Positions 4,205-44,141 of a DNA stretch of 64,000 bases are shown here, piece after piece. The stretch is from Anaerolineae bacterium. GTDB lineage: Bacteria > Chloroflexota > Anaerolineae > UBA3071. A model generated the notes under the pieces. That model was not told where the DNA came from and made no database searches. It worked only from the letters and a program-made list of their open reading frames with translations. Each line of letters starts with the position of its first letter. Within the stretch, counting starts at the first letter, position 1. The stretch lies in the NCBI GenBank assembly GCA_029907105.1, contig JARYMM010000004.1, positions 65,364-129,363 of the forward strand, read 5' to 3'. The position numbers were made by a program, and so were the translations under genes.

Positions 4205-4280
4205 TGTCTACCTACCTCATTCAAGGTCCACAGCTCAAAACTGTGGGGCATAGCTTCTTTTGGATTTTGAACTTTCATCT

Positions 4281-4796
4281 TTAGCTATCGTCCACCGCCC
4301 GCAGCGCCGCCAGCCAGCCATCCAGCGGCGAAGGCAGGTCCGTCTGCTCCGTCCGCTGGTGGTAGCGGATCAGTTCCACCGTGGCCGGGGCACAGCCGGC
4401 AGCAGCGGCCAGCTCGGCCCCGCGCTGCGGATGGTGCAGTTGCAGCCAGAAGGGATAGCGCCAACTGGCCGGGTCGGGCGAGGCCAGGCGGCCCAGCCAG
4501 GCAGGACACAGCGCCTGCAGCAACACGGTGGCGACCCGATGCCAGAGGCGCACGCCCTCCGCCTTGGCCACGTCGTGCAGCAGGGCTGCCGCCAAAAGCT
4601 CCGGGGTGTCCTGACCCCGTTGCCGCAAGGCATGCAGCAGGTCCAGGCTGTGACGCTGATACTGCCTCGGCATACGCCGGAAGAGCTCCGCTGCCGGGAC
4701 AGGCAGGACATGCGCTGCCAAAGCTTGCTCTTCCGATCCCACCCGCGCCGTCAAAGCCCGCCCAAACTGCCGCACCCGATGCCACACCGCTGACAT
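4281..4796 (-). CDS. HD-domain phosphohydrolase
   Basis: LLHDVAK HD motif. Confidence 0.55.
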   Translation of the reverse strand: MSAVWHRVRQFGRALTARVGSEEQALAAHVLPVPAAELFRRMPRQYQRHSLDLLHALRQRGQDTPELLAAALLHDVAKAEGVRLWHRVATVLLQALCPAWLGRLASPDPASWRYPFWLQLHHPQRGAELAAAAGCAPATVELIRYHQRTEQTDLPSPLDGWLAALRAVDDS

Positions 4797-5544: not shown

Positions 5545-5812
5545 TAGGAAGGCTGTTTGAAGAAAACGGGAACAACAAAGAGGCCAGGCGGGGAAACGCA
5601 CAGGGGGGAGAAACGACAGGAGCGCCAGGGGCTGGCTATCCCCTGGCGCTCGTGGCGACGAGAGAACGCTTACATCTCTCGCCCTTAATTATAGCACGTC
5701 CGGCCCTGCTTTGCTTGACGCTTTTCCTGCGTCTTCCTTACGATTCCCCGCTGTTGGCGGGCAAGAAGTGCGCAACCGGCGGGGGATGTGATTTGCCCAC
5801 CCTGCCGAGATG

Positions 5813-5910: not shown

Positions 5911-6180
5911 GTGTCCCTCTCCAAAGAGGAAAAGGAAAGCATCATTCAGGAATACCGCACCCATCCTGCGGACACCGGCTCGCCGGAGGTCCAGGTAGCC
6001 CTGTTGACCACGCGCATCAACATGCTCACCGAGCACCTGAAGGCACACAAGCACGATGAGCATTCGCGGCGTGGGTTGCTCAAACTGGTAGGCCAGCGCC
6101 GCAGACACCTGGCCTATCTGCGCAAAGTGGATCACCAGCGTTACCTGGGCCTGATCCAGCGTCTGGGCCTGCGGAAGTAG
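5911..6180 (+). CDS. rpsO: 30S ribosomal protein S15
   Basis: [36 protein letters not shown] matches S15; GTG start after a purine-rich RBS. Confidence 0.9.
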
Positions 6181-6220: not shown

Positions 6221-6305
6221 CCACTGGACGGTCTGGCAGACGGCAAGAGGGGCAGGAATTGGAGAGCGGGACCAATTTCAAGGCGCAAAGCTCAAAATCC
6301 AAAGT

Positions 6306-6395
6306 CAGTAGATCACAGCGTGCTCTTGCTGGACTGTCAAGTCCAGCGGGAAGCGGCGGACTTGACAGTCCGCCGTGAGCCTTGGTGATCTACTG
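6306..6395 (+). promoter_or_regulatory. Long imperfect hairpin in the rpsO-pnp intercistronic leader
   Basis: cagtagatcac...ggactgtcaagtcc...ggacttgacagtcc...gtgatctactg forms nested inverted repeats. Confidence 0.4.
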
Positions 6396-6420
6396 AAAGT
6401 GCAAAACTCTGGGCATCGGT

Positions 6421-6476
6421 TCTTTTGGATTTTGAACCCTGATCTTTGGATTTTGGACTTTGATCTTTGGACTTGG
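6421..6476. repeat. Heptanucleotide tandem repeat (TTTTGGA-like, about 8 units)
   Basis: ttttgga ttttgaa ccctgat ctttgga ttttgga ctttgat ctttgga. Confidence 0.6.
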
Positions 6477-6635
6477 TAGTGGTCTCCAGTCCCTGACCTC
6501 TTGCCCGCCAGACACCCGCGACATTTGGTCGCGGGTGTGACGCGTCTGCTGGGCGCAGAGCGTCATCAGATCAGGCGGGGAGCCGGGCCTGGAATACCGG
6601 CTTCTGACTAGAACAAGAGGTAAGAGGACTTTACC

Positions 6636-8849
6636 ATGCAAAAGTACCAATTCCGCGCTCGCATCGGCGAGCATGACATCATCATCGAGACCGGCACGCT
6701 GGCCCAACAGGCTGGCGGTGCGGTCACCGTGCGCACGGGCGATAGCGTCGTTCTGGCCACGGCCACAGCCTCGCAGAAGCCCCGCGAGGAAGCAGACTTA
6801 TTCCCCCTCACTGTGGACTACGAGGAACGGCTCTATGCCGCCGGCCGCATCCCCGGCAGTTTCTTCCGCCGCGAAGGACGCCCCAGCGAGGCAGCCATCC
6901 TGCTTTGCCGCCTGGTGGACCGCCCGCTGCGTCCCCTTTTCCCCAAGGGATTCCGCAACGACGTCCAGATCATCCTCACCGCGCTTTCCGCCGATCAGGA
7001 TAACTACCTGGATATCCCGGCCATCATCGGGGCTTCGGCCGCACTGATGATTTCCGACATCCCCTTCGGCGGGCCCGTGGGGGCTGTGCGCGTGGGCTAC
7101 GTGGACGGCGAGTACATCTTCAACCCCACCGCCCAGCAGATGGAGCACAGCATCCTTGATCTGCGCATGGCGGGGACGGAAGATGCAGTCCTGATGGTGG
7201 AAGCGGGTGCCCACGAAGTGCCCGAGGACATGATCGTTGAGGCGCTCAAGCTGGGCCACCAGCAGATGCAGGACGTCATCCGGGTGCAGAAGCAGATGGC
7301 CGCCGAGGTGGGCAAGCCCAAGCTGCCCTTCGCCTCCGGCTTGCCTTCGGAGAAAGCACGGGCCGCCATGAGCCAGAGGGTGGGGGATCGTCTGGCCGAG
7401 ATCATCGGCAGCGAGGTGTCCAAGGAAGAGCGCAATGCTGCGCTGGACGCCCTGCGGGAGGAGTTAGTGGACGAGTTCGAAGATACCTTCGATCCCGAGG
7501 AGGGCAAGGTTGTCTTCGACGAAGTCCTCAGGCAGACCGTGCGCCGGCGCATCCTGGAGGAGGGGATTCGTCCTGACGGCCGGGACACCAAAACCATTCG
7601 CCCCATATCCTGCCAGGTGGGCATACTGCCGCGCACGCACGGCAGCGGCCTTTTCACCCGCGGGGAGACGCAGGTGCTGACCATCGCCACCCTGGGCACG
7701 CCCAGAGAGGCGCAGACCCTGGATACGCTGGCTCCCGAAGAGAGCAAGCGTTTCCTGCACCATTACAACTTCCCGCCCTATTCCACCGGCGAGACCTGGC
7801 CTCTGCGCGGCCCCAAGCGCCGCGAGATCGGGCACGGCGCGCTGGCAGAACGCGCCCTGGCCCCCATGATCCCGGACATGGACGAGTTCCCCTACACCAT
7901 CCGCCTGGTGTCAGAGGTCCTGTCCTCTAACGGCTCCACCTCGATGGCCTCCGTCTGTGGCAGCACCCTGGCCCTGATGGATGCCGGCGTGCCCATCAAG
8001 CAGCCGGTGGCCGGCATCGCCATGGGCCTGGTCATGGAGAACGGCCGCTACGCCATCCTCAGCGATATCCTGGGCATGGAAGACCACCTGGGGGACATGG
8101 ACTTCAAGGTCGCCGGCTCCCGCTACGGCATCACCGCCCTGCAGATGGATATCAAGGTCAGGGGGTTGAGCTACGAAATCCTGGAGCAGGCCCTGCACCA
8201 GGCACGGGAGGGTCGGTTGTACATCCTGGACAGGATGCTGGAGGTGCTGCCGGCCCCGCGGGCGACGATGTCGCCCTACGCGCCGAGTATCGTGACCATC
8301 CATGTGGACCCGGAAAAGATCGGCAAAATCATCGGCCCCGGAGGCAAGGTCATCCGCTCCATTCAGGAAGAGCACGATGTCAGGATAGACATCGAAGACG
8401 ACGGCTCCGTCTACATCGCCGGCACCAATGCCATCGCCAGCAAGGCGGCTATCGCCGAGATCGAGAAGCTGGTGGAAGAGCCGGAGGTGGGCAAGATTTA
8501 CACGGGCAAGGTGGTGCGCACGGAGAGCTTCGGGGCCTTCGTGGAAATCCTGCCCGGCGTCGAGGGCATGGTGCACATCTCGCAGTTGGCCGACTACCGG
8601 GTGCCCAGTGTAGAAGACGTGGTGCGGGTGGGGGACGAGATCATGGTCATGATCATTGACATTGATCCCGTTACGGGCAAGATTCGCCTCTCCCGCCAGG
8701 CTGTGCTGGAAGGGTGGACAGCAGAGGAAGCGCGTGAACGTGACCGCCGTCCTTCCGCAGGGCCACGCCTGCCCTCCCGTCCCCGCCTGGGCAACTTCTA
8801 CGAGGAAAACTCGAGAGCGGGTGGCCAACGGCCGCGTCGCAGGCGCTGA
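6636..8849 (+). CDS. pnp: Polynucleotide phosphorylase
   Basis: 737 aa; two RNase PH-like domains followed by KH/S1; classic rpsO-pnp linkage. Confidence 0.95.
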
Positions 8850-9459: not shown

Positions 9460-11232
9460 ATGAACACGCGCTGGAGCCCGCTGACCAAAGGCATCGTCGT
9501 CGTGAGCAGCCTGATCGTTGCCGTCTGGGTGCTCTTCCGCTTCAGCCGCCTGCTGCCGCCGTTGATCGTGGCCCTCATGCTGGCCTACCTGGTGAATCTG
9601 CCGGTCTCCTGGATCGTGCGCCGCACGCACTGGCCGCGCACGCCCCTGGCGGCCGGCTTTTTCGTCCTGCTGATCGTGCTGCTGATCCTGGCTCCGGTGC
9701 GCATCACGCCCCGCCTGGTGGAGCTGATCCGGGCGTTCAACGTGAACCTGCAGGGGGTGATCGCCGCCATTCAGCATCTGACGGCCGAACCCATCATCCT
9801 GTTCAATGTGGAGATCCCCACGTCAGACCTGGTGTCACGCGTGGCCAGTGCCCTGGCCGACCTGCTCTCCCCCTTCGCCAGCGGCGCCATCTCCTTTGCC
9901 TTCGGTGTCGCCTCCACCGTCGGCTGGCTGCTCTTCATCTTTGTCGTCTCCTTCTACATAGTCAAGGACGCGAGGAAGCTTGCCCATTATCTGGCGGAGC
10001 GCATCCCCCCGGGCTATGAGGAGGAGTTTCGGCGGCTGGGTCAGGAACTGGCCGAGATCTGGGATGGTTTTTTCCGCGGCAGCCTCATCGTGGGCGTGAT
10101 AGACTTCATCATCTTTTCCATCGTTCTCTCTATCATCGGCATGCCCAACGCCCTGATCCTGGCCTTGATCGCCGGCCTGTTCACCCTGATCCCCAACATC
10201 GGCCCGCTGCTGGCGGCCATTCCCGGCGTGTTGCTGGCCCTCTTCCAGGGCTCCTCCTACCTGCCGCTGAGCAAGTTCTGGTTTGCTTTCCTGGTGGGGA
10301 TGATCTATCTGGCCGTTTTCCAGGTGGAGAACCTCTACACCATCCCGCGAGTGGTCGGGCGGCGGGTGAGGTTGCACCCTGCCCTGGTCATCATCGGTGC
10401 CGTGGGCGGCGCGTTTCTGGGGGGACTGCTGGGGGTCCTCCTCGCCGCACCGGTCATCGGTTCCTTGCGCGTGATCGGCGGCTACATCTACCGCAAGCTC
10501 TTTGACCTGGAGCCTTTTGCCCTGCCTGCCGTGCCCGCCGGGGCATTGGAGGCACAGAAGCTGGGAATGATCGCCGGCCGGCCGGTGGAGGCGGTGCTTT
10601 TCGATCTGGATGGCACGCTGATCGAGACCGATGACGCCCTGGTGGAGCAATGGGCGAGGCGGCTGGACCGCGTGGCCTGGCTCTTCCCCGCGCGCAACAC
10701 CCAGCGGGCCGCCCGCCGCCTGGTGATGGCTGCCGAAAGACCGGTCAACGCCCTGGTCACCCTGCTCGACCGGCTGGGGCTGGACGATGAAGCGTTCAGG
10801 CTGGGCCGTTGGCTGCGCCGCTGGCAGCGCCGCGTGCCCCCCTCCGAGATCCGCCTGGTAGGCGGCGCTGAAGAGACACTGCGCGCCCTGAGCGGTCGCT
10901 ACCGCCTGGGCCTGGTCACCACCCGATCGCAGGCGGAAGTGGACTCGTTTCTGAGCCGCAGCGGGTTGAGCGAGCTGATGGAAGTGGTCGTCGCCGGCGA
11001 TACCAGCCCGCGGCTCAAGCCCCACCCGCAGCCGGTACAGAAGGCCGCCCAGCAACTGGAGGTAGATGTGGCCCGCTGTGTTGTGGTGGGCGATACAGGG
11101 GTAGATGTGCGGGCAGCCAAGGCCGCCGGGGCGCTGGCCGTGGGGGTGCTCAGCGGCTTCGGCGAACGCCGGGACCTGCGCCAGGCCGACCTGATCCTGG
11201 AGAGCGTGCGGGAGTTGGTGGAGTGGTTGTAA
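9460..11232 (+). CDS. AI-2E family transporter (PerM/UPF0118) fused to a C-terminal HAD hydrolase
   Basis: Polytopic N-terminal region; the C-terminus carries the LFDLDGTLIETDD HAD motif I and a GDTGVDV motif. Confidence 0.7.
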   Translation: MNTRWSPLTKGIVVVSSLIVAVWVLFRFSRLLPPLIVALMLAYLVNLPVSWIVRRTHWPRTPLAAGFFVLLIVLLILAPVRITPRLVELIRAFNVNLQGVIAAIQHLTAEPIILFNVEIPTSDLVSRVASALADLLSPFASGAISFAFGVASTVGWLLFIFVVSFYIVKDARKLAHYLAERIPPGYEEEFRRLGQELAEIWDGFFRGSLIVGVIDFIIFSIVLSIIGMPNALILALIAGLFTLIPNIGPLLAAIPGVLLALFQGSSYLPLSKFWFAFLVGMIYLAVFQVENLYTIPRVVGRRVRLHPALVIIGAVGGAFLGGLLGVLLAAPVIGSLRVIGGYIYRKLFDLEPFALPAVPAGALEAQKLGMIAGRPVEAVLFDLDGTLIETDDALVEQWARRLDRVAWLFPARNTQRAARRLVMAAERPVNALVTLLDRLGLDDEAFRLGRWLRRWQRRVPPSEIRLVGGAEETLRALSGRYRLGLVTTRSQAEVDSFLSRSGLSELMEVVVAGDTSPRLKPHPQPVQKAAQQLEVDVARCVVVGDTGVDVRAAKAAGALAVGVLSGFGERRDLRQADLILESVRELVEWL

Positions 11233-11311
11233 GTTCAGGGGAAAAAGGGAAAAGAGGGAAAGAAGGGGACTGAGGGAACTGGGGGTTGAAGTAAGAAGGC
11301 GAGGGATGGAA

Positions 11312-11345
11312 AACGCCGGGGCGAAAGCCTCGGCGTTCTTGATTC
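11312..11345. terminator. Bidirectional hairpin terminator between convergent genes
   Basis: aacgccggggcgaaagcctcggcgtt with a GAAA loop; followed by TTTTCC on the minus strand. Confidence 0.45.
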
Positions 11346-11460
11346 CAGCGGGGCAAAGACTCGAACATTCAGGCCGCAGCCCAAAGGTCCGACCCGAGGA
11401 GTCGAAAGCAGCAGCTCATTCGGAAACCTGGAACCTGCAACCCGGAACCTGGAACCCACA

Positions 11461-12348
11461 CTAGCCGGCCATCCGCTGCAACCATAGCGGCACCCACAGC
11501 TCGCCGATGTCCAGGAGGTTCAGCGTCAGCGCGCCGATCAGGATCAGCAGGCTGAAGGCGATGAGCGCGTAGTCCGCCGGCTTGTACTTCAGCTCCTTCA
11601 GCCAGGTGCGCGGCCCCGTGCCGAAGGCGCGCAGGTCCATGGCGTCAATGACCTCCTCGCCGCCCACCACCGAACCGATGGTGATGGGGATGAGCAAGGG
11701 GGCCATATTGCGTATCTGTCCGATCAGCCCTGCCCCCACCCGCTCCAGCTCGTAGCCGCGAGCCTTCTGCGCGTCCATGGTGACGGAGAAATCCCGCCCC
11801 AAGGAGGGGATGAAGCGGAAGGCCAGGTCCACAGCAAAGGCCAGCTTGTCGGGCAGCCCCAGCCGGCGGAAGGTGATGCCGTACTGCGCCGGGTGGATGG
11901 TGAACGGGATGACCACGGCCAGCAGGGCGAAGCTCATGATGCGCGTGAGCTGGCTGATCAGGTACATCACGCGCTCGGCGCTGAGACGGGGGCGGAGGGT
12001 GAGGCCGAGGACGCGGAAAGGCTCCGGCTGCCAAAGGAAATGCGTATCCACGTACACCCCAGCCTCACCCCGCCCCGTCAGCGCCGTGGCCAACGACAGG
12101 ACGGTGGCGATGATGCCGATCACCAGCCAGAAGCGGCGCGTCTCCCGCCAGCTCAGCCTGGCCAGCACGAACTGCGTGAGACCCAGCAGGAAGAAGAAGG
12201 CGATGAAGCGCAGGTCCCAGAACTGCATGATGGCCACCATGGCGCAGAGCAGGAAGATGATGCGCCCTCGCGGGTCCAGCTTCTGGATGACCGTATTCCG
12301 TTCCCTGTACTTCCAGGTGATCAGCATCCGCAGAACTCCAAAGCTCAA
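11461..12348 (-). CDS. ecfT: ECF transporter transmembrane T component
   Basis: CbiQ/EcfT-like 295-aa membrane protein downstream of the ECF ATPase gene and the putative S component. Confidence 0.75.
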   Translation of the reverse strand: MSFGVLRMLITWKYRERNTVIQKLDPRGRIIFLLCAMVAIMQFWDLRFIAFFFLLGLTQFVLARLSWRETRRFWLVIGIIATVLSLATALTGRGEAGVYVDTHFLWQPEPFRVLGLTLRPRLSAERVMYLISQLTRIMSFALLAVVIPFTIHPAQYGITFRRLGLPDKLAFAVDLAFRFIPSLGRDFSVTMDAQKARGYELERVGAGLIGQIRNMAPLLIPITIGSVVGGEEVIDAMDLRAFGTGPRTWLKELKYKPADYALIAFSLLILIGALTLNLLDIGELWVPLWLQRMAG

Positions 12349-12385
12349 AGTTCAAAGCTCAAAGGTTTGAACTTTGGATTTTGCT

Positions 12386-13498
12386 TTAGCGTCCCGCCCG
12401 TCCTCTGGCCTGCTGCCAGGCGGCGTACAACAGCGGGGTCAGGATGGCCGAGAAGAGGGTGTTGGGGCCGGCCGCCGGGATGAATTCGCCGACGAAGGCG
12501 GTCACGAAGCTGTAGCCGTTGACGAAGATGTCGGCGAAGGCGGCGAAGGCGAAGGCGATGATGATGCCCAGCGTGCCCCAGACGACGATGCGCCGTGTGT
12601 CCTCATCGGCCAGCCAGGCCGTGATCGCCCGCCGCCGGGTATAGAGGAAAGCCACCAGCACGGCTTGCAGCAGCGACCACACGATCAGCAGCCACGAGCC
12701 CCTGACGATGCCCAGGATAAGCATGAGCAGGGTGAGCAGCGCGGCCACGATGGACCAGTACTGCGGGACCAGGGCCAGCACGGCGGTGATGATCAGGATC
12801 ACCAGCATGATCCACCACCAACTGCGGAACTCTGTCGTCGCCTCGCCGGTCCAGGGATGGACGACGTTGGGGAAGACGATGGGCAGCAGCACGGCAATGG
12901 CCAGCACGACGGCGCAGACGAGGAAGATGAGGCGCACGTTGGCCCTGCGCTCGCGGGTGAAGTACATCGCCGCCAGGCCGGGGATGAGGCCCATCAGGCC
13001 ATTGGCCAGGTCCCAGACCGGGTAGACCCCCCAGCCGGTGAGGGCATCGCCCAGGATATTGCCCACGGCGCCGGCGAAGAAGCCCACCGCCGGGCCGAAG
13101 GCTACCCCGAAGAAGATGGGGATGGCCACCACAGGGCGCAGGGCCACCAGGCTCACCGAAGGCACGGGAATGGCATTGAAAGCCCAACTGAGCAACCCGT
13201 ACAGGGCTGCACCCAGGGCCATCATCACCACCTCCCGTGTCCCGATCTTCCAGTACTCGGGATCGGAGAAGAGGACGTAGATGATGTAGACGACGATGGC
13301 ACCGATGATCGTCCACACCAGCCAGCCGCCGAAGAAGCCCGTCTCGCCCCGCAGCGCGCTGTTGCTCACCCCCGCCAGTTGCTCGCCCATCGCCGTGCCC
13401 GTCTTGAGGGCGTTGACCACACCGCCCAGATAGAAGAGTATGGCGACGATGACGATGCCGATGATGAGAGGCAGGATCGGTTTGACGTACCTGTTCAT
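12386..13498 (-). CDS. Putative ECF transporter substrate-capture (S) component, unusually large (about 370 aa)
   Basis: Polytopic membrane protein between the ECF A and T genes; start chosen at MNRYVKP with a GGAGG RBS. Confidence 0.45.
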   Translation of the reverse strand: MNRYVKPILPLIIGIVIVAILFYLGGVVNALKTGTAMGEQLAGVSNSALRGETGFFGGWLVWTIIGAIVVYIIYVLFSDPEYWKIGTREVVMMALGAALYGLLSWAFNAIPVPSVSLVALRPVVAIPIFFGVAFGPAVGFFAGAVGNILGDALTGWGVYPVWDLANGLMGLIPGLAAMYFTRERRANVRLIFLVCAVVLAIAVLLPIVFPNVVHPWTGEATTEFRSWWWIMLVILIITAVLALVPQYWSIVAALLTLLMLILGIVRGSWLLIVWSLLQAVLVAFLYTRRRAITAWLADEDTRRIVVWGTLGIIIAFAFAAFADIFVNGYSFVTAFVGEFIPAAGPNTLFSAILTPLLYAAWQQARGRAGR

Positions 13499-19452: not shown

Positions 19453-19559
19453 AGTTTCCGGTCGGCCCTACGTTCCCCCGTTGGCACGTACCAGGGGAAC
19501 GCACGACCCATGATACCGCAGCTAGCGCCAAAGCGCAAATTTCGCTGCTCGCGCGCGCT

Positions 19560-19580
19560 GAGGGGGGCACAGCCCCCCTC
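19560..19580. repeat. GC hairpin downstream of the VR (gagggggg-cacag-cccccctc)
   Basis: An 8-bp G/C stem about 65 nt 3' of the VR end on the coding strand. Confidence 0.4.
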
Positions 19581-19646
19581 AGACTCCCCCCACAGAGATC
19601 AGGGACTCAGAGTTCCAGAGACCAGAGACTCCAGAGGCCAGAGGGG

Positions 19647-19781
19647 GGAGAGTCAGGAGACCGCCACCACCCGAAACCCGAAGTTGTCGTTGCGGTAGCC
19701 CGGGAAGTACCCGTCGCGAAAGGCGCAGCGGACGTCCCTGCGATCGTCGTACCACGCGCCGCCACGAAGCACGCGCGGCGC
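19647..19781 (-). repeat. DGR variable repeat (VR) at the 3' end of the target gene
   Basis: Aligns to the TR with 18 substitutions, all at TR adenines; the 3'-terminal about 28 nt (IMH-like) is near-identical to the TR. Confidence 0.85.
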
Positions 19782-22529
19782 ATCTCCTTCAACGTCCTGA
19801 AGTTTCCGCTCCTTTTGAACGTAGCCCTGGTAATCGCCCACCCATTGCGTCAGACACCATTCCCAGACGTTGCCGCTCATGTCCAGCACACCATAGGGAC
19901 TGGCTCCGGCGGGAAAGAGGCCCACGGCGCTGGTCGTGCCGATGCCCGTGTCGCCCATGTTGCACTTGCTCTCGTCGAACTCGCCTTTCCAAGGGTAGAT
20001 GCGGCCATCGGTGCCCCGGGCGGCCTTTTCCCACTCTGCTTCCGTCGGCAGGCGGATGACGGTTCCCGGTTTCAGGTTCCAGGTTTCAGGTTTTCCCTCC
20101 CGCCAAATCCGCAATCCGCATTCCGCATTCCGCAATCTCTCCGTGAGCCAGCGACAGAAGGCCAAGGCTTCGTACCAGGTGACGCCGACGACGGGGTGGT
20201 TGGGCAGGTCGAAGACGCCGCCGTATTTCTCCGGCCCGGTGCGCTCACCCCGCCACTGGAGGCCGGCCTGTGTCCACCAGTCTTTGTTGCGGTAGCCATC
20301 GGGATCGTCCACAAACGCCTGGAATTGCTCGTTGGTGATGGGGTAGCGGGAGATGAGGTAGTCGTAGGGCAGGGGGTGCTCGTGCTGCGGCAGTTCATTA
20401 TCCCAGGCCTCCGGGTCGTGCTTCTTGTCGCTGCCCATGGTGAACGGGCCGGCGGGGACGGGGCACCAGAGGATGTCGGGCAACCCCTCCCCCAACCCCT
20501 CCCCGACACGGGGAGGGGAGAAGAGGCCCACGCCAGGACGGGGGTCGTCCAGGCGGGCCAGCACCTGTCCGGCTTCAACCCGCGCCGGCACTGAGACCCC
20601 CTCCAGATGGCGCTCGACAAAATCGGCCAGTTGTCGGGCCAGTTGCTGACGAGCAGTGTCATACCAGCCCACCCGATGCGGGGGGATTTCCAGCAACGCC
20701 CGGCCCGCCCAGGCCAGGCCAAAGGCCCGCCGGTCACCTGCCTCCGCCAATTCAGCTAACTCTTCAAGCAGGAAGCGGCGGGCCTGCTGTGGCCATTGCA
20801 GCAGGTAACCCGCCATCAGCAAGAACACCTCTAGCCACCAACTGCGCCCTGCGTGTTCCCGCAAGAAGCCAGTCCAGGCCTCACCGCGGCCGCGCAGGTT
20901 GTCCACCAGGTAGTTGGCCGCCAGGAACTCCTGCACGGTCAGGTGGTCGCCAAAGCTATATCCACCTTCGTGCTGATAGAGGATCCCGCTGCGCTCGGCC
21001 ATCAGGCTCAGGAACTCTGCCGCTTCCTTCTCCGCATCCCGCCGCCGTTCCAGGTTCAGGTATTCTTGCATGAAGGGGGCCAGGATGCGCCGCACCAGAT
21101 CCTGTTCATCCACCACGACCAGGGCATCTTGCTTCCGACGGGAGGCCTGCTCCGGCTCGGCAAGCTCGTGGGTCTGATAGGCAGCATAGGCCAGGTAGAG
21201 ACGGCGGTCTTCGGCCGGCCAACGGGCGTCGCGCAGGGAAGGCACTGCCTCAGCCCCCTCTTCTTCATGCAGCCGCTCCCCCAGGAGCACACTGACGTAG
21301 GCATGATATAACTCGGCCCGTTGCTCGGGCAATTGCCGGCCGGCATAGTGAATAATGGTCGCTGTCCAGACCATCAATGGGGTCTTGACCATTTCCTGCA
21401 ACAGGTCGGAGCTTTTGATACGCTCGACGAGCAGCCGGGCGCGCTCGGCGGCCACGTCCGGATCGGGCTCCAGGCCGGCATAGAGGCGCCTGGCAATGAA
21501 TTGCCACTGGGCCGGCGTCAGGTCACGCACCGTGGCCAGGTCAAAGCGCTCGTTGAGCTGGGCTCCGGCGTAGGCGGCCACCCGTGCGGTGACCAGGTAA
21601 CGGTTGCCCGGCCAGTCGTCGGCCAGACGTTCGATGATCTGCCGCACGAGGGCGCGGTGATCAGGGTCAGCCACCTCGTCCAGTGCATCGAGCAGCAGCC
21701 AGCAACGGCCAGCCCGGATCTGCGCCGAGAGGAAACCGTGCGGCACCTTGTCCGGGTGCCAGCGTTGGAAGTGATCGTCCACGAAACGCAGCAGGCCCTG
21801 CACATCGCGATGATATGTGTGAGGGCTCGTCTGGCAGGCGTGCTCGAAGTTGCGCAAGGCTACGAAGACCGGCAAGGGCAGGGGCGAGACGGTCAGGCCG
21901 AGTTCAGCTCGAGCCAAATCGGGCTCGGCGCAGGCCAATACGGTGGCCACCAGGCGCAAGACGGTGGTCTTGCCGCAGCCGGCCTGGCCGATGATGGCCA
22001 GGTTGCCACTCAGAGCCAGCATCTCGGCCAGGGAGATGTCGCGGCGGGCCTCGTCTCTGCTCTCTTTCTTCTCCACACCCAGAGGCGAGACCGGGCGGCC
22101 CGGTTGCCAGTCGAAACGCAAAGGGGTATAGATGCCCTCTTCGCCAAGCAAGGGAAAGCGGTCGGCCGCGCCCTTGAACTCGGAAAGCTGCTTGTAAGGC
22201 CTTGTCTCCACCAGACCGCAGGCGGAGCGCATCGTCTCCAGATAGGTGGCGACGATCGCCTCGTCATCTTCAGCAGGGCCACCGGCTGGAGGCAAGACCG
22301 ATTGCTCCAATTCTTTCAAGCGGTCTTCCAACTCTCGAATGGTTGCTTCCTCGTTTTCGATCTGATTCTGCAGGTGCAAAGGCACCATACCGGCTCCGAA
22401 GCGAGCAGCATCCAACTCCAGCTTCCGCAAGTTGCGCTCGTGCTGGGCCAGCAGTCGCTGCAGGTGCTTCTGCTCCTCAGTGATCGGATCTTCGAGGCGC
22501 GATGGTCTGAGAGTGGTCTGTGCAGACAT
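19653..22529 (-). CDS. DGR target protein: N-terminal coiled-coil, STAND (NACHT-like) NTPase, C-terminal FGE-sulfatase/C-type-lectin-fold domain carrying the VR
   Basis: Walker A GQAGCGKTT; FGE-type fold ending in RGGAWYDDRRDVRCAFRDGYFPGYRNDNFGFRVV; start at MSAQTTL with a GGAGAGGG RBS. Confidence 0.8.
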   Translation of the reverse strand: MSAQTTLRPSRLEDPITEEQKHLQRLLAQHERNLRKLELDAARFGAGMVPLHLQNQIENEEATIRELEDRLKELEQSVLPPAGGPAEDDEAIVATYLETMRSACGLVETRPYKQLSEFKGAADRFPLLGEEGIYTPLRFDWQPGRPVSPLGVEKKESRDEARRDISLAEMLALSGNLAIIGQAGCGKTTVLRLVATVLACAEPDLARAELGLTVSPLPLPVFVALRNFEHACQTSPHTYHRDVQGLLRFVDDHFQRWHPDKVPHGFLSAQIRAGRCWLLLDALDEVADPDHRALVRQIIERLADDWPGNRYLVTARVAAYAGAQLNERFDLATVRDLTPAQWQFIARRLYAGLEPDPDVAAERARLLVERIKSSDLLQEMVKTPLMVWTATIIHYAGRQLPEQRAELYHAYVSVLLGERLHEEEGAEAVPSLRDARWPAEDRRLYLAYAAYQTHELAEPEQASRRKQDALVVVDEQDLVRRILAPFMQEYLNLERRRDAEKEAAEFLSLMAERSGILYQHEGGYSFGDHLTVQEFLAANYLVDNLRGRGEAWTGFLREHAGRSWWLEVFLLMAGYLLQWPQQARRFLLEELAELAEAGDRRAFGLAWAGRALLEIPPHRVGWYDTARQQLARQLADFVERHLEGVSVPARVEAGQVLARLDDPRPGVGLFSPPRVGEGLGEGLPDILWCPVPAGPFTMGSDKKHDPEAWDNELPQHEHPLPYDYLISRYPITNEQFQAFVDDPDGYRNKDWWTQAGLQWRGERTGPEKYGGVFDLPNHPVVGVTWYEALAFCRWLTERLRNAECGLRIWREGKPETWNLKPGTVIRLPTEAEWEKAARGTDGRIYPWKGEFDESKCNMGDTGIGTTSAVGLFPAGASPYGVLDMSGNVWEWCLTQWVGDYQGYVQKERKLQDVEGDAPRVLRGGAWYDDRRDVRCAFRDGYFPGYRNDNFGFRVVAVS
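20061..20138. repeat. In-frame heptanucleotide repeat block inside the target gene
   Basis: ggttccc ggtttca ggttcca ggtttca ... cgcaatc cgcattc cgcattc cgcaatc; encodes NAECGLRIWREGKPETWNLKPG within the FGE domain. Confidence 0.6.
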
Positions 22530-22712: not shown

Positions 22713-23285
22713 CTACCCCAGCTTTGCCGACGGCTGTTTCTTCAGCCGCAAATCGCGCAAGGTCTCGAAGCTCATGAAGTCGGCCTTGTTGATGAGGGTG
22801 GCCTCGGCGGTGCGCGTCATCTTGTCCCCCTCGCCGGCATGGGCGGCGATCATGTGCAGCACTTCCTCAGGCAGGCCGAACTCGGCAGCCAACGCCGCGC
22901 CGGAGAAGGGATGGCGCAGGAACTGGCCGTGGCGAGACTGCACGGTCAGGCCATCCTCGCCGCGCTCGTACTCCAGCAGCTTGCCGATGTCATGCAACAG
23001 GCCCCCAGCCAGCAGATAATCCACATTCAGCGGCACCCGGTCGCCGTAGATTTCATCGAACACCTCCGCCGCCCGCAGCGCCGTCAGCGTCACCGCCCGC
23101 ACATGCTCGATGTAGCTGGCCGGGCAGGGGTTGATGAGCAGGGTGAAGGGCATCTCCGCCAAGGCCGCCAGCGTCCAGCCGCTGCGCGCCAGCGCCGCCT
23201 CCCATACCTGCAACGTCTTCTCCCGCAACCCGGCATCCTGGATGAGATCGAACTCGGGAATCAGGGCCAGCAATTCTTCTCTCAT
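22713..23285 (-). CDS. HD-domain phosphohydrolase
   Basis: GGLLHDIGK HD motif. Confidence 0.6.
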   Translation of the reverse strand: MREELLALIPEFDLIQDAGLREKTLQVWEAALARSGWTLAALAEMPFTLLINPCPASYIEHVRAVTLTALRAAEVFDEIYGDRVPLNVDYLLAGGLLHDIGKLLEYERGEDGLTVQSRHGQFLRHPFSGAALAAEFGLPEEVLHMIAAHAGEGDKMTRTAEATLINKADFMSFETLRDLRLKKQPSAKLG

Positions 23286-23330
23286 ATCATCCTCTCCCTG
23301 GTTTGAAGTTTGGTGTTTGAAGTTGAAGGT

Positions 23331-23708
23331 TTAGCTCCGTCCGACCAGATAGACGCCGGCGCAGATCACCAGCACCCCCAGCCAGCGCAGCAGGGGCACG
23401 TCCTCCTTCAGCACCGCCCAGGAGAGCAGCACCACCAGGACGTAGCCCAGGCTGATGGCCGGATAGACATAGCTCAGCGCCAGGCGGGAGAGCAGCACCA
23501 GCCACAGCAGGGCGCTCAGGCCGTAGGCGGCAATGCCCGCCAGCACGTAGCCATTGCTCAGGGCCCGGCCCATGGTGGCCAGGAAGCGGTCGGACTGGAA
23601 GGTGACGACCCCCACCACGGTCATCCCCTTTTTCATGGCCAGTTGGCCGAGGACGTTGAGCAGCACGGTGATCGCCAGCAGGAGGAGGTCTTTGGCGTCT
23701 GCCTTCAT
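23331..23708 (-). CDS. Small EamA/SMR-like four-TM membrane protein (ArnE/ArnF-like)
   Basis: 125 aa from MKADAKD with four predicted TM helices; the longer ORF needs a TTG start. Confidence 0.5.
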   Translation of the reverse strand: MKADAKDLLLLAITVLLNVLGQLAMKKGMTVVGVVTFQSDRFLATMGRALSNGYVLAGIAAYGLSALLWLVLLSRLALSYVYPAISLGYVLVVLLSWAVLKEDVPLLRWLGVLVICAGVYLVGRS

Positions 23709-23885
23709 ATTCTCTCCCTCATCGAAATTATACCCCACTTCCGGAGCGCAAGCAACTCTCAAACCGCCCAACATCAGCGCCGGCAGTCTTGCTCTTGTTT
23801 TTACCTGCCTTCCTTGGCCCTCTGCAAGGGCCGGCCAGGCCAAGAAAGGGCCAGGACAAGTTCTCGCGCCACCATGCAGGTAGGG

Positions 23886-23950
23886 GATGCTTCGCTGGAG
23901 TCGGCCGGGCAATGAAGTTTGACGCCTGAAACCCGCTCAGCATGACAGGT
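23886..23950. other. Conserved bipartite element, copy 1 (GATGCTTCGCTGG...CAATGA...ACCCGCTCAGCATGACAGGT)
   Basis: The same blocks, in the same order, occur again at 46216-46313. Confidence 0.5.
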
Positions 23951-24081: not shown

Positions 24082-24210
24082 ACCTCGAAAATAGATGCCT
24101 GGACCATTATTCGTCCCTGGTGGTGTCCGCAGGGACGTGACAACTACTCTGCGCAGTTGACGCCTCGGCCTGAAATGAGTATACTTGTGCTCAGGCGAAG
24201 GAGAGATGTC

Positions 24211-27072
24211 ATGAGCGACCGAACAAGCCGCATGGCGAGATGGCTTCTGGTGATGGCGCTGGTGTGTGGCAGCCTGGGCGCCCCGCGCGCCGCGGCCGCC
24301 CAGGAGAGCACCGACCTCGTCCAGCAGATACTGGCGCAGATGTCCACCGCCGACAGGGTGGGACAGCTTTTCCTGGTCTCCTTCGCCGGCACCGACGTGG
24401 GACCCAACTCCGACATCGCCCAACTCATCCGCGACTACCGTGTGGGCGGCGTGGTGCTTTCGGCTTCCAACGGCAACTACCGCAACGAAGGGGATACGCC
24501 AGCCCAGGTCGCCCAGTTGACGAACGCCCTGCAGACCTGGGCCTTCAGCCAGCCGCTGCCCCCTGCCTCCGCCGAAAGCGAGATAGAAGTGATCACTCCT
24601 ACTCAGGCGGTGGAAAGCCTCCCCATCCCCCTGTTCGTGGCCATCGTCCAGGAAGGCGACGGCTTCCCCTACAGCCAGCTCTTCAACGGCTTCACCCCCC
24701 TGCCCAGCAACATGGCCATCGGCGCCACCTGGAACCCGGCCAACGCCCAGGCCGTGGGCCAGCTCGTGGGCCGCGAGCTGGCCGCCGTGGGCGTCAACCT
24801 GCTCCTGGGCCCATCCCTGGATGTGCTCGACAACCCGCGGCCCGGCGGCAAGGGCGACCTGGGCACCCGCACCTTCGGCGGCGACCCCTACTGGGTGGGC
24901 AAGCTGGGCCAGGCCTACATCCGGGGCGTGCATGAAGGCTCCGGCGGGCGCGTGGCCACGGTGGCCAAACACTTCCCCGGCCAGGGCGGCAGCGACCGCC
25001 GCCCCGACGACGAGGTGGCCACGGTCCAGAAATCCTTGCAGCAACTGCGCTCGGTGGAGCTGGCCCCCTTTGCCGCCGTGGTGCGCGGCGCCGAAAGCGG
25101 CGACTGGTCCGGCAGCGCCGAAGGGCTGATGTCCTCGCATATCCGCTACCGCGGCTTCCAGGGCAACATCCGCCAACTGACCCCGCCCATCAGCCTGGCC
25201 CCGCAGTTGCAGGACCTGATGGCTCTGCCCGAATTCGCTGCCTGGCGCGCTCAGGGCGGCCTGCTGGTCACCGACGGCCTGGGCGTGCCCGCCGTGCGCC
25301 GCCACTACGACCCCCAACTGCAAAAGTTCCCCCACCGGCAGATCGCCCAGGAAGCTTTCCTGGCCGGGAATGACCTGCTGCAGCTAGCGCAGTTCTCCCT
25401 CACCGGTGCCTGGCCCGACCAGTTCACCAACATCAAGGAGACCATCCAGTTCTTCCGCGAGAAGTACGAAAGCGACCCCGACTTCCAGCGGCGGGTGGAC
25501 ACGGCCGTAGCCCGCATCCTCACCCTCAAGCTGCGCCTCTACCCCCAGTTGGATTGGCCGAGCACCCAGGTCTCACTGGAGACGCTGAGCCAGGTGATCA
25601 ACCGGGGCCAGGCGGACATGGCGCGGGTGGCCCGCCAGGCCATCACGCTGATCTATCCCGGGCTGGAGGAACTGGCCGACCGGCTGCCCAGCGCGCCGCT
25701 GGCGGATGAGAACATCCTCATATTCACAGAAGCCCGGCAGGTGAGCGAATGCGCCGACTGCCCCGCCTTCCCCCTCATCCCGCCCACTGCTCTGGAAGAG
25801 ATCATGCTGCGCCTCTACGGGCCGCAGGCCAGCGGCCAGGTGGACCCCGAACGGGTCCGCAGCCTCACCTTCGGCCAGCTCAAAGCCTTTCTGCGCGGCG
25901 AGTTGGACGAGGCCGCCGCCCGGGAGATGGAGACACTGATCGGAGAGGCGGAATGGGTCCTCTTCGCCATGCTCGACCTCAACCAGGAAGAGTATCCCGA
26001 TTCCGATGCCCTGAAGCAGTTCCTGCGCCTGCGCTCCGACAGCCTGCGCGGCAAGAACCTGGTGGCCATGGCTTACAACGCCCCCTATTTCCTGGACACG
26101 ACCGAAATCAGCAAACTGACAGCCTATTACGGCGTCTACGCCAAAACGCCGCCGTTCCTGGAAGCTGCGGTGCGTGCCCTGTTCCGCGAATTCACCCCCG
26201 CCGGCGCACCGCCGGTCAGCGTGGCCGGCATCAATTATGACCTGCTCAAACGCACCGAGCCAAACCCTGACCAGATCATCCAGGTCATGCTGGCCAGCGA
26301 GGTTACAGGTGAGGACCTGACGGCAGCGGTAGACGTGAAAGTGGGGGGCACGTTGCGCCTGCGCACCAGCGTCATCCTCGACCGTAACGGCCATCCGGTA
26401 CCCGATGGCACACCGGTGGAGTTCAAATTGCTCTATCCCGTCGAGGCCCTGGAACTGCCCCGCCAGGTACAGACAACCGTGGAAGGCGTGGCCGAGGTCA
26501 GCGTGACCCTGGAGCGCAGCGGCGAGCTGTGGGTCTCGGCCAGCAGCCCGCCAGCGCAGCAGTCCACGACGCTGGTGGTGAACATCCAGGGCGACGAGCC
26601 GGCCACCATCGCCACCGTGGTGCCCACCGACACGCCCACGCCGACGACCACGCCGACAGCGACACCGACGGCGACGCCGACGGCCACCCCCACGGTAACG
26701 CCTACGCCGACCCTCACGCCCGTGCCCACGCCCGCCTCTGCCGTCGAGCCCCCGCCAGTGCCTCCGCGCCGCGTCAATCTCACTGCCCTCGTGCTCGGCC
26801 TGATGGCCTCGGCCATCGCCGCCGCCATCGGCTACCTGCTGTCCATGAGCATGCAGCTCGCGCCCATCCGCCTGCTGGCTTCTGCCCTGTGGGGGTTGAT
26901 CGGGGGACTGGCCGCCTACGTGCTGTATGGCCTGGGCTGGCTGCCCGGCGCGAGCTGGCTGCAACGGGGAATGGGGCCGTGGGGGGCAGCGGTCGTCGCC
27001 TTTATCGGCGGCTCGTTGCCCTTGCTCGTGCGTGGCTTCCAGGCCGCCCGCGCGGCGACGAAACGTTCGTGA
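24211..27072 (+). CDS. Glycoside hydrolase family 3 (beta-N-acetylhexosaminidase-like) with a Pro/Thr linker and a C-terminal membrane anchor
   Basis: Signal peptide, KHFPGQGGSDRRPDD GH3 motif, TPTPTTTPTATPTATPTATP linker, C-terminal TM helices; AAGGAGAG RBS. Confidence 0.7.
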   Translation: MSDRTSRMARWLLVMALVCGSLGAPRAAAAQESTDLVQQILAQMSTADRVGQLFLVSFAGTDVGPNSDIAQLIRDYRVGGVVLSASNGNYRNEGDTPAQVAQLTNALQTWAFSQPLPPASAESEIEVITPTQAVESLPIPLFVAIVQEGDGFPYSQLFNGFTPLPSNMAIGATWNPANAQAVGQLVGRELAAVGVNLLLGPSLDVLDNPRPGGKGDLGTRTFGGDPYWVGKLGQAYIRGVHEGSGGRVATVAKHFPGQGGSDRRPDDEVATVQKSLQQLRSVELAPFAAVVRGAESGDWSGSAEGLMSSHIRYRGFQGNIRQLTPPISLAPQLQDLMALPEFAAWRAQGGLLVTDGLGVPAVRRHYDPQLQKFPHRQIAQEAFLAGNDLLQLAQFSLTGAWPDQFTNIKETIQFFREKYESDPDFQRRVDTAVARILTLKLRLYPQLDWPSTQVSLETLSQVINRGQADMARVARQAITLIYPGLEELADRLPSAPLADENILIFTEARQVSECADCPAFPLIPPTALEEIMLRLYGPQASGQVDPERVRSLTFGQLKAFLRGELDEAAAREMETLIGEAEWVLFAMLDLNQEEYPDSDALKQFLRLRSDSLRGKNLVAMAYNAPYFLDTTEISKLTAYYGVYAKTPPFLEAAVRALFREFTPAGAPPVSVAGINYDLLKRTEPNPDQIIQVMLASEVTGEDLTAAVDVKVGGTLRLRTSVILDRNGHPVPDGTPVEFKLLYPVEALELPRQVQTTVEGVAEVSVTLERSGELWVSASSPPAQQSTTLVVNIQGDEPATIATVVPTDTPTPTTTPTATPTATPTATPTVTPTPTLTPVPTPASAVEPPPVPPRRVNLTALVLGLMASAIAAAIGYLLSMSMQLAPIRLLASALWGLIGGLAAYVLYGLGWLPGASWLQRGMGPWGAAVVAFIGGSLPLLVRGFQAARAATKRS

Positions 27073-31800: not shown

Positions 31801-31964
31801 GGGACAGCGGCCAGATCCACCCCTGGGACCCTCCCACCCCCTTCGACGTGGATGTGAGCGGCGTGCAGCGCCTGACCCTGAAACAGATCGAGGAGGGGCA
31901 CTTCGAGGGTCGCGGCGACGCCGTGGATTGGGTGAACCCCGTCCTACGCAAACCTGAAACCTGA
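28863..31964 (+). CDS. GT-C family glycosyltransferase (PMT/ArnT-like) with C-terminal PA14 and NPCBM-like domains
   Basis: Polytopic N-terminal half with a WLDETD DE motif; a PA14-like segment (GLYQFGLSSDDASRLWIDDQLVVDNWG); an NPCBM-like C-terminus (DHGIGVYGPGEMDFDLGGGY...VQIIGDGRVLWDSGQI). Confidence 0.65.
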   Translation: MARTQTLIRSLLTALGVALAIAGQWALLQARQPGSRLTWPLGAALLALGALLFAFTATDIPLGEQRKRKGQKPSAFPLTIRLPHLPSSWALPADLLAVLLITAIAAAARFYRIAETPAGLWLDETDIAKQALEIVNGLRPRPWQVARLEVPWLYHYYVALFYKLLGPGYLTVKLPHLISSTLTAPVLYLLARQFLDRPIAFLSALLWATMRWSVNMSRWGHANTLTLFWICTVFFLLWRAQATGKWRWWVLGGLALGLSQYAYQSTRALVAIVAVFLIYRALCPRRYFRRLWPQILLFWLLFALVYAPLAWTYIQNPELFLERSRAISIFNPLFTRDPWATLKENIGKYAGVFHFRGDHNGRHNIPGQPMLDPITGVLAVLGLALTLRRPQRPHHALLLLWVLPFLAVGILTTEAPNTFRIYALTPAIALLAGLALQAIRDWILGIGHWSLEDVASISNIRYLPLAILLTVAIAAAAYLNLALYFNVQATHPAVVGMFNVGPTRVGQYIATLPDDTTIYLDREFWAFSPIEVINPGRPLTRLKAPDHVPPPPAQNAPVAYILGTYGQLLVPCLQSLYPDALVEPGLGPNDQPIFTGVRLSGETVARKGLRGTWWAGLEPGGQPAASGVTPLDPLPITPPATADLRGGLYLPKPGTYGLRMEGADRLRLTLAGRTALEAPAQPVSLTLPGGLVSAHLELTVAGPAAPRLLWRPPGAGDWEPIPGQNWYPLDIPEGGLLALSFEGGGLRTPPVRITSDAWLYADNAGDLATAAMRWLGRLHIPEAGLYQFGLSSDDASRLWIDDQLVVDNWGLHGAGWMDRPAELTAGWHGVRIDYIDNGGSHWFEVRWTPPGQSPGRLPAELLSWSEDDLAQALTPPENPPPVLRVLNAAGEPVGTVPIAAARLGDPKFNQPIGDANFQSWPMKLQSTMYDHGIGVYGPGEMDFDLGGGYLRFQGLVGVDTDTYGDAHTQVQIIGDGRVLWDSGQIHPWDPPTPFDVDVSGVQRLTLKQIEEGHFEGRGDAVDWVNPVLRKPET

Positions 31965-31986
31965 AACCTGGAACCCGAAACCCGTC

Positions 31987-33114: not shown

Positions 33115-33271
33115 CTGGCACATTGTAGCACGATGCAGCACAGAAGCCAAGTTGCCGTTTTCTCTTTTGCCCCAAAGCAGGTATAATGAGAGAGGGTTCC
33201 AGGTTCCAGGTTGACAGGTTTCAGGGTGGCTTCGAGCCGGCAGCCTTGAGCCACCCGTGGAGGTAGGGAAC

Positions 33272-43146: not shown

Positions 43147-43233
43147 GCCGAAGTGGCGGAATTGGCAGACGCGCACGGTTCAGGGCCGTGTGGGCTTACG
43201 CCCATGTGGGTTCAACTCCCACCTTCGGCACCA
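43147..43233 (+). tRNA. tRNA-Leu (anticodon CAG), CCA encoded
   Basis: Cloverleaf with a long variable arm; anticodon loop ttCAGgg; close to the E. coli tRNA-Leu(CAG) pattern. Confidence 0.85.

Positions 43234-44069: not shown

Positions 44070-44141
<72 letters not shown>

Follow-up and report, generated by a model that had tools for sequence, protein, structure and literature searches.

Why does a single stretch of bacterial DNA carry so many tandem repeats with a unit of seven bases, and what is the repeat that lies between its rpsO and pnp genes? The DNA in question is a 64,000-nucleotide section (positions 65,364 to 129,363, forward strand) of contig JARYMM010000004.1 in the Anaerolineae bacterium assembly GCA_029907105.1; this whole stretch is referred to here as the window, and its G+C content is ~65%. 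An earlier note, made from the letters of the window, had drawn attention to positions 6421–6476 and proposed that heptanucleotide tandem arrays recur at gene boundaries throughout, in the manner of the short tandemly repeated repetitive (STRR) elements of cyanobacteria. The analysis described below shows that the arrays are real and lineage-specific, that they lie both between genes and, in frame, within them, and that the pnp leader contains a long conserved hairpin of which the flagged array makes up one arm, something that the note had not recognised.

Repeats were called on the 64-kb window with Tandem Repeats Finder (TRF), counting arrays with at least 3 copies and a score of at least 30, and the program was rerun on 100 dinucleotide-preserving shuffles of the window as the null model. 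Fifteen period-7 arrays were observed, compared with a mean of 0.22 and a maximum of 2 in the shuffles, an excess of ~68-fold. The peak at seven is sharp, the other observed counts being 0 for period 5, 5 for period 6, 1 for period 8 and 3 for period 9. Judged against both the shuffles and the neighbouring periods, the excess is thus large and specific to seven bases, and the strongly non-random style that the note had described is borne out. With period 7 dominant, the window also fits the over-representation that marks the heptanucleotide class of long simple sequence repeats (SSRs). Higher-order periods of 14, 21 and 28 are found inside some arrays, and the mean GC of the array units is 0.49. 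Curation by hand gives ~18 array sites. Identical pairs of units occur at unlinked sites 5 times where 0.21 are expected, a number that 0 of 2,000 permutations reached, and pairs no more than one mismatch apart occur 11 times where 3.1 are expected (P = 0.001). Two families recur, GGTT[C/T]CA at 5–6 sites and TTTG[G/A]AN at 4–5, and ~10 of 17 units are singletons.

The simplest way to dismiss such a pattern would be to ascribe it to chance low-complexity sequence or to errors of metagenome assembly. The window does come from a metagenome-assembled genome (MAG), and short-read assemblers can mishandle repeats. Yet homologous arrays stand at orthologous positions in independent assemblies (Logan, ENA, JGI and NCBI, from different samples and pipelines), and the arrays inside genes hold the reading frame and bear substitutions that avoid stop codons. 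Together with the excess over shuffles and its peak at period 7, these features refute an origin by chance or artefact, and we attach virtually no probability to it.

All of the sites that had been listed contain sequence with a seven-base period, but several are degenerate, of another period or displaced. Specifically, the arrays at 4245–4290 and 23295–23335 are degenerate and lie below the period-7 TRF threshold, TRF calls period 8 at 45792–45811, and matches reach only 70% at 19593–19643. The TGACCAA/TTGGTCA pair exists, but at 59606–59624 and 59654–59671, ~20 nt to the left of where it had been placed and with 2.3 copies per arm. At 6421–6476, a plain seven-base period gives only 3.9 copies and 76% matches, and a better fit is a 21-nt unit of three diverged heptamers (TTTGGAT TTTGAAC CCTGATC) in 2.3 copies with 88% matches. 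As to gene boundaries, 11 of the ~18 arrays are indeed intergenic, and they lie in the ~8% of the window that falls between genes according to an approximate gene map (drawn from codon-position GC, Pfam matches and the gene calls of orthologs). The description is incomplete, however, as the other 7 of the ~18 are in frame within real genes. Seven arrays inside genes, at 20106, 34098, 48505, 48962–49072, 51887, 52193 and 52249, had been overlooked.

The array that prompted the question belongs to a nested inverted repeat in the spacer between rpsO (5911–6180) and pnp (6636–8849), with outer arms at 6250–6304 and 6444–6498, a perfect 12-bp inner stem (6305–6316 with 6385–6396) and a further 23-nt stem. 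The whole is predicted to form a long stem-loop (6250–6498, + strand): the RNA of 6240–6510 has a predicted folding energy of −141.5 kcal/mol (z = −10.5), a stability that 0 of 200 shuffles attain. Within it, the 5′ arm (6274–6304, +) consists of complementary heptamers (..CAAGGCG CAAAGCT CAAAATC CAAAG), with an inverted match at 6290–6303 to the TTTGGAT-type array, and the flagged array (6421–6476, +) is the 3′ arm (TTCTTTT GGATTTT GAAC... heptamers). For comparison, contigs of close relatives were reached by protein searches followed by contig look-ups, direct contig scans with PNPase having given relatives of at most 69% identity. The four used at the pnp locus (L166–L169) have PNPase identities of 93, 88, 85 and 83% as a set, the 88% being that of L166. 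Aligned with these, the 3′ arm has 18–21 extra columns in the window only, and it is because of this window-only 21-nt (3×7) duplication that the site is conspicuous. The apex of the hairpin holds a 92-nt palindromic insertion that is not heptameric (6305–6396, +) and is absent from all four relatives. Its ends are perfect 12-nt terminal inverted repeats (TCAGTAGATCAC / GTGATCTACTGA), and a stem of 23 nt lies inside. No second copy of it was found in the window or the fetched loci, and it may represent a different kind of small mobile hairpin.

The hairpin is conserved in L166–L169 in the order GGAGAGCGGGACCAA, (YYCAAAR)x5, a loop CTCTGGGGCACAGG, TTCTTTT GGATTTT GAACTTT GATTTTG GATTTGG and TAGTGGTCTCC. 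At PNPase identities of 83–93% it is nearly invariant in the four genomes, while the remaining leader can hardly be aligned; their hairpins fold with z ~−5.4, the fold of the conserved core being identical. More distant relatives likewise have strongly structured pnp leaders, in which heptamers are absent. Rfam holds no family for the pnp leader or for any of the arrays. The hairpin in the rpsO–pnp leader of E. coli is processed by RNase III and autoregulates pnp (Portier and co-workers). The two leaders are alike in having, in the same spacer, a long and very stable stem-loop that is conserved among relatives; they differ in that there is no sequence similarity and that the distal stem in the window is built of heptamer repeats. 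By this analogy, the pnp-leader hairpin is probably a functional RNA structure of the kind that RNase III cleaves in E. coli, with a distal stem formed by paired heptamer arrays.

The near-invariance of both arms within an otherwise diverged leader also raises the question of whether the heptamers are selected as such. In this explanation, arrays would be platforms with multiple binding sites and would be selected for that role. Cold-shock-domain proteins, each domain of which binds ~7 nt of single-stranded T-rich RNA, or a regulator could be the ligand, and the pnp array would modulate a cold-responsive RNA structure. In E. coli, pnp is a cold-shock gene. The 3′ arm has the heptamers TTCTTTT, ATCTTTG and AACTTTG, and CspB has been reported to bind heptamer repeats at a ratio of one molecule to each heptamer, with tighter binding of TTCTTTT than of TTTTTT (summarised in PMC4679880). 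Beyond this locus, however, the units are very diverse and some are GC-rich (GCGACCT, CGCCGAA), and a single unit is found in both orientations relative to transcription. Furthermore, seven arrays lie within coding sequence, in loops that are free to vary among orthologs, and arrays are gained and lost between close relatives. At most a subset could be functional. As a general account of the arrays, we regard selection for protein binding as quite improbable.

Complementary arrays often sit as inverted pairs that are predicted to fold into hairpins, and the pnp leader is one of several such places. Further pairs are found at 12339–12395 (intercistronic, z = −3.95), at 52193–52290 (intragenic) and at 59606–59671. 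The first of these combines CAAAGCT in 3.7 copies with a TTTGAAC-type array (+ strand) in a putative hairpin between the ECF-S stop (12386) and the CbiQ start. An inverted heptamer pair is present in this spacer in all four genomes compared, with differing units, and in L169 the genome's own arms pair at −20.5 kcal/mol, compared with −6.8 to −11.3 kcal/mol for pairings with the arms of the other genomes. The pair at 59606–59671 (+) is small, with AATGACC in 2.3 copies (59606–59624) facing GGTCRTT (59654–59671); its unit is of the STRR2 type, and its fold has z = −2.7.

A second site in the window bears directly on how such structures spread. A paralogous and partly decayed copy of the pnp-hairpin apex, comprising the loop and the 3′ heptamer arm, lies at 4232–4283 (+), right after the TAA stop (4281–4283, minus strand) of the gene at 4281–4796. 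The sequence from 4222 to 4292 aligns with the pnp apex over ~60 nt at ~80% identity and is in places closer to the relatives' version of the apex than the window's own pnp leader is. Since the match includes the non-repetitive loop and the corresponding spacers of L166 and L168 lack the element, array-bearing sequence appears to be copied occasionally to new loci. Outside pnp leaders, 169 loci yielded no additional copy of the apex element, and a scan of viral contigs for the hairpin apex gave 0 matches.

This copy is an argument for the idea that the arrays are parts of small non-autonomous mobile elements, that is, hairpins with heptamer arms resembling miniature inverted-repeat transposable elements (MITEs), repetitive extragenic palindromic (REP) sequences or Rickettsia palindromic elements (RPEs), which would have inserted widely, also in frame inside genes, and then decayed, with slippage in a secondary role. 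The recurrence of unit families at unlinked sites speaks for it, as do the inverted pairs, which are common here and in other phyla. Ogata et al. in 2000 reportedly found RPEs inserted in frame in conserved genes, and the in-frame arrays described below resemble them in behaviour only. Elements of the RPE, REP and bacterial interspersed mosaic element (BIME) types are likewise small repeated sequences that form hairpins in spacers, and their in-frame inserts are tolerated in surface loops. In contrast, RPEs and REPs are dispersed elements of defined length without internal 7-nt periodicity, and most window arrays share no ends or flanks; they are single and direct, and they lack a partner arm, common flanks, terminal inverted repeats and target duplications. 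Units differ widely from site to site, as the proportion of singletons shows, only the one paralogous pair is found in the DNA that was fetched, no associated transposase was seen, and orthologous arrays change their unit and copy number in place. An origin of the arrays as mobile elements is in our view unlikely.

The arrays within genes have the same strand and frame on both flanks. In the loop of an FGE-sulfatase domain, adjacent arrays of GGTT[C/T]CA (5 copies) and AATCCGC (4.6 copies) at 20061–20140 (−) add ~20 residues in frame. The loop has 7–8 residues in 28 of 30 aligned homologs versus ~20 more in the window, and query residues 121–145 of this domain are without counterpart in the solved homolog EgtB. 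Likewise, a perfect TCACGCA array of 3.9 copies (34098–34124, +) lies in frame in a variable loop of histidine ammonia-lyase (HAL) that has 6 residues in relatives of 72–74% identity. A Mur ligase gene contains TCCAGCT in 2.3 copies (42444–42459, +), in frame and at the same residue at which L083 and L084 bear a CCTCCAA-type array of ~13–15 copies with 28 extra residues. The TMEM260-like glycosyltransferase open reading frame (ORF) at 47695–49704 holds two arrays in frame, GCGACCT in 4.3 copies (48505–48534, −) and, just past the PF11028 domain, a 111-nt composite GCAAGAA-type array with periods of 7, 14, 21 and 28 (48962–49072, −); for this ORF and for the Mur ligase, the intragenic status is based on frame continuity and Pfam matches. 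Finally, the 971-aa glycosyltransferase-like membrane protein at 49828–52743 is encoded by a single real gene, for which full-length homologs exist. Its three arrays occupy inter-helix loops whose length varies: GGYTTCA GGTTCCA followed by CGCCGAA in 5.6 copies (51872–51926, −), and an inverted pair of GGGATAA (3.4 copies) and CCCCTAA (5.7 copies) at 52193–52290 (−), all in frame.

How can seven-base units be accommodated in reading frames? In 6 of 9 intragenic arrays the units are free of stop codons in all frames, and in the remaining ones each of the three would-be in-frame stops has been removed by a single substitution (in the FGE array TGA has become TGG, and in the array at 52249 two TAG codons have become TAT). 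On this sequence evidence, the intragenic arrays appear to be translated and kept open.

Some other repeats in coding sequence may be mentioned beside these. In L081, which is the closest relative, an inverted pair of ATTGGGT (3.7 copies) and CAATATC (5.7 copies) at 2029–2113 lies inside a PMT-like gene, whose product has 7 more residues than its window ortholog. At 26631–26733 of the window, a repeat with periods of 6, 12 and 24 encodes a Pro/Thr-rich linker (TPTATPTATPTATPTVTPTP) in a 971-aa gene (24157–27072); its unit length being a multiple of three, this is an ordinary coding repeat, unlike the heptamers. Many Chloroflexota NACHT-FGE homologs (among P0122–P0150) have a variable low-complexity insert just past the EAEWERAARGP motif, for example LPSPSEGEGPGVR, which has the look of repeat or palindromic DNA that is translated; the window protein lacks it.

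Between genes, most arrays start at base +1, directly behind the upstream gene's stop codon. Orthologs with other arrays or with none keep the native C-termini, as seen in the ECF-S protein (AGR*), in CbiQ (AG*) and in a 172-aa protein. A direct GGAACCT array of 4.6 copies (11420–11460, +) lies between convergent genes, flush with the CbiQ stop at 11461; it is also present in L166 and is absent from L168 and L169. A degenerate CAGAGAC-type array (19590–19650, +) comes directly after the stop (19653) of the NACHT-FGE gene, and a short GTTCCAGG/GGTTTC array (45790–45815, +) just after that of the ORF at 44190–45782. The divergent spacer upstream of the HAL gene contains GGTTCCA in 4.3 copies (33191–33225, +), and its counterpart in L081 is GGTTYCAGGTTYCA. 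At one site the array itself provides the end of a protein: AAACCTG in 4.7 copies (31950–31985, +) fills a convergent gap, and the PMT-like gene at 28863–31964 takes its final residues and its stop (KPET*) from it. In the same gap L081 has AAACCCG in 3.9 copies, which likewise encodes the end and the stop of the PMT gene, an ortholog with PMT_2, PA14 and NPCBM domains. A TTTGAAG-type array (23295–23335, +) supplies or abuts the TAA stop of the minus-strand gene at 23331–23912. This gene shares its frame with another minus-strand gene at 22713–23285, from which it is parted only by the array carrying the upstream gene's stop; the arrangement may be a coincidence, or a single gene may have been split by the array.

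Several spacers also hold small repeats of other kinds. A period-8 array of TACCAATC in 4.5 copies at 49798–49832, directly after the stop of the membrane-protein gene at 49828–52743, has the position of a heptamer array and an 8-nt unit. Two further features lie at 11239–11285 and 11311–11337: right after the stop of the gene at 9460–11232 there is a G/A-rich run of 8–9-mers (GGGAAAAA, GGGAAAGA, GGGGACTGA), which is kept in L166 and L169, and it is followed by a terminator-like hairpin AAACGCCGGGGCGAAAGCCTCGGCGTT kept in all relatives. A G6/C6 palindrome, CTGAGGGGGGCACAGCCCCCCTCAG, at 19558–19582 adjoins the array at 19590. Similar G/C-run palindromes form in-frame inserts of 13–22 residues in the biotin-protein-ligase gene of L084 and L082, and they represent a second class of small insert tolerated within genes of the clade.

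It is informative to follow individual sites through relatives of graded distance, compared here by their HAL identity to the window (93% for L081, 89% for L082 and 87% for L083 and L084). Where the window has TCACGCA TCACGCA TCACGCA TCACGC in the HAL gene, L083 and L084 have TCATGCA CCACGCA TCACACA CCACGC, which is the window array in decayed form. In L082 the sequence is TTACGGA TTACGAA TTACGCT TTACGAA, with the place and copy number of the window array and a unit that has changed in concert. The array is absent from L081, which has only ATCAGGC in 2.3 copies nearby. At the Mur ligase site, the 2.3 copies of TCCAGCT in the window compare with an array of ~13–15 copies of CCTCCAA/CTTCCAA in L084, which adds 28 extra residues. 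Changes of copy number and of unit are seen between relatives at 85–93% protein identity. Hence, at moderate divergence the arrays stay at their sites, yet the units of an array change together, copy numbers shift, and arrays are gained or lost. At the near end of the scale, two contigs that are 99.5% identical over 16.5 kb with ~7 arrays differ by 43 substitutions and 5 indels (of 11, 1, 11, 6 and 4 nt). Array turnover takes place on the scale of species or genera, and the arrays are not hypermutable contingency loci; a phase-variable role was considered and rejected, given that arrays inside genes have a fixed frame and belong to enzymes of housekeeping type and that no polymorphism is seen between the near-identical contigs.

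The explanation that we favour, and that we consider fairly probable, combines slippage-type expansion and contraction in 7-nt steps with rare copying between sites and strong selective filtering. Strand slippage or unequal exchange would create the arrays and remodel them, with 7, 14, 21 or 28 nt gained or lost at a time. Now and then an array or an array-bearing hairpin would be copied to another locus, and the sharing of unit families would be explained in this way. Arrays survive only where they are tolerated, namely in intergenic spacers and, if in frame and free of stops, in variable protein loops, and paired arrays would sometimes be co-opted as hairpin stems.

A number of observations weigh against this explanation. 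Simple slippage does not account for a step of 7 being so sharply favoured over 6 or 8, or for the same units at unlinked sites. In the 99.5%-identical pair, none of the 5 indels is a multiple of 7 nt and none lies within an array, so that on that timescale the arrays are not hypermutable. The arrays of the pnp leader are conserved rather than variable, and the consensus structure of the hairpin has 44 pairs with 0 compensatory changes; the sequences are too conserved for covariation analysis to be informative, and it is conservation and folding energy that support the structure. At the ECF-S/CbiQ spacer, the three genomes other than L169 share a unit family and their arms cross-pair freely, so that co-evolution of the arms is clear in 1 of 4 genomes. 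Furthermore, the comparison covers 64 kb of the host genome and ~90 kb of close relatives.

A more speculative reading is that of a dedicated and possibly horizontally transferable activity (a polymerase, a primase, a repair enzyme or a tiny mobile hairpin) that would write 7-nt duplications and copy them between sites, some of the products being co-opted as regulated RNA hairpins, such as a target for a cold-shock protein or RNase III in the pnp leader. It is suggested by the sharp register of 7 nt, by unit families that are specific to a genome and recur at unlinked loci, by how often inverted pairs occur, and by a patchy occurrence among phyla (Acidobacteriota including Pyrinomonadaceae, cyanobacteria, Xanthomonas and Beggiatoaceae besides this Anaerolineae clade), and we consider it improbable.

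The distribution of the arrays can be examined in light of the identity of the host. The closest relatives of the window's PNPase, HAL and NACHT-FGE protein are MAGs of uncultured Anaerolineae, Caldilineae and other Chloroflexota, the HAL being 100% identical to a protein from an NCBI 'Anaerolineae bacterium' MAG, and the host is evidently an uncultured Anaerolineae-like member of the Chloroflexota and not a cyanobacterium. Period-7 arrays number 37 in 152.5 kb of the window clade (2.4 per 10 kb) and 8 in 376 kb of more distant Chloroflexota-like PNPase loci (0.2 per 10 kb), and the trait is clade-specific. In the PNPase neighbourhoods of many phyla (~2.9 Mb), period 7 is again the commonest, with 94 arrays versus 77 of period 6 and 63 of period 9, and the period-7 arrays are clustered in few lineages, notably a Pyrinomonadaceae locus (L073) with 12 in 22 kb. 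In that locus, too, arrays start no more than a few bases from a stop codon, and inverted pairs occur. Unit sharing across phyla between the window and an acidobacterium (AATCCGC/ATTCCGC and the GTTTCA type) is not significant, ~23 of 300 permutations doing as well. At 5574–5649 and 6685–6748 of L073, exact inverted pairs (GTTTCAA/TTGAAAC and GAATGCG/CGCATTC) come directly after stop codons; the GTTTCAA/TTGAAAC pair is followed by a T-run and resembles a long-stem intrinsic terminator built of heptamers. Within the window, G+C falls to 0.51 at 1–2000 and to 0.54–0.58 at 54000–58000, segments that may have been acquired, and the latter is nearly free of heptamer arrays. Three tRNA genes (43147–43230, 44070–44141 and 44147–44219) are the only Rfam matches in the window.

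The STRR sequences of heterocystous cyanobacteria, which the earlier note had taken as its model, were reportedly described by Mazel et al. in 1990. Their canonical units are CCCCAGT (STRR1), TTGGTCA (STRR2) and CAACAGT (STRR3). In architecture the resemblance stands: both systems have head-to-tail heptamer arrays of a few to ~15 copies, with a few unit families dispersed over many unlinked loci; both are mostly intergenic and occur in both orientations, and both may sit in a functional gene that tolerates the extra length. Vioque 1997, a title cited in PMC2858038, reported STRRs inside the cyanobacterial RNase P RNA gene. The likeness does not extend to host or units, as the window belongs to a Chloroflexota genome of ~65% GC, its units differ and include many singletons, and a large fraction of its arrays is in frame in protein genes. 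When units are compared with STRR1–3, only one 2.3-copy pair has the STRR2 unit and none has that of STRR1 or STRR3; with ~20 arrays, 3 STRR units and ~1,170 canonical heptamer classes, this single match is within chance.

The further claim that such repeats are unexpected in a high-GC genome was overstated. As summarised in PMC4679880 and PMC4692102, Mrazek, Guo & Shah 2007 found heptamers to be the most abundant class of long SSRs in scattered genomes, high-GC Burkholderia, Xanthomonas and actinobacteria among them, proposed polymerase slippage as the origin and noted that intragenic repeats tend to have unit lengths that are multiples of three. Set against this summary, the window is similar in the dominance of period 7, in the scattered phylogeny, in the intergenic enrichment and in slippage as the proposed origin, and differs in that its 7-nt arrays are common in genes, where they are kept in frame. 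Rehm et al. 2015 described intergenic GGGAATC and GGGGA(T/C)T arrays in Xanthomonas and Nostoc, some of them inverted pairs able to form stem-loops, which stay between the same genes in related species while length and sequence vary (PMC4692102). The window pair at 52193–52290 (GGGATAA/GGGTTAA) is also G-rich, but in those genomes one G-rich unit with quadruplex potential dominates, whereas the window has many units that are mostly not G-rich. MacGregor 2015 reported TAACTGA direct repeats with a patchy distribution in marine Beggiatoaceae, some cyanobacteria and Bacteroidetes (PMC4679880). These too are concentrated by gene ends and are occasionally found in ORFs, where they are read as heptapeptide repeats; in contrast to the window, with its multiple units mainly after stops, they have a single unit that lies mainly upstream of starts. 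Heptamer arrays in Chloroflexota are mentioned neither in PMC4679880 nor in PMC4692102, and literature searches found no description of them.

Every single feature reported here therefore has a precedent, the over-representation of heptamers in scattered bacteria having been known since 1990 from the STRRs and since 2007 from genome surveys, and the case is one of heptamer repeats of a known type in a new phylum. What this high-GC Chloroflexota case adds is a set of relatives graded between 99.5% identity in DNA and 83% identity in protein, which lets array sites be traced through gain, concerted unit change, expansion and decay. For annotation, peptides encoded by arrays and stops supplied by them alter the predicted lengths and termini of proteins in these MAGs. 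The window and its relatives also provide unusually clear evidence that arrays can be translated within conserved enzymes, their stop codons purged, and that paired arrays can become the stems of conserved RNA hairpins.

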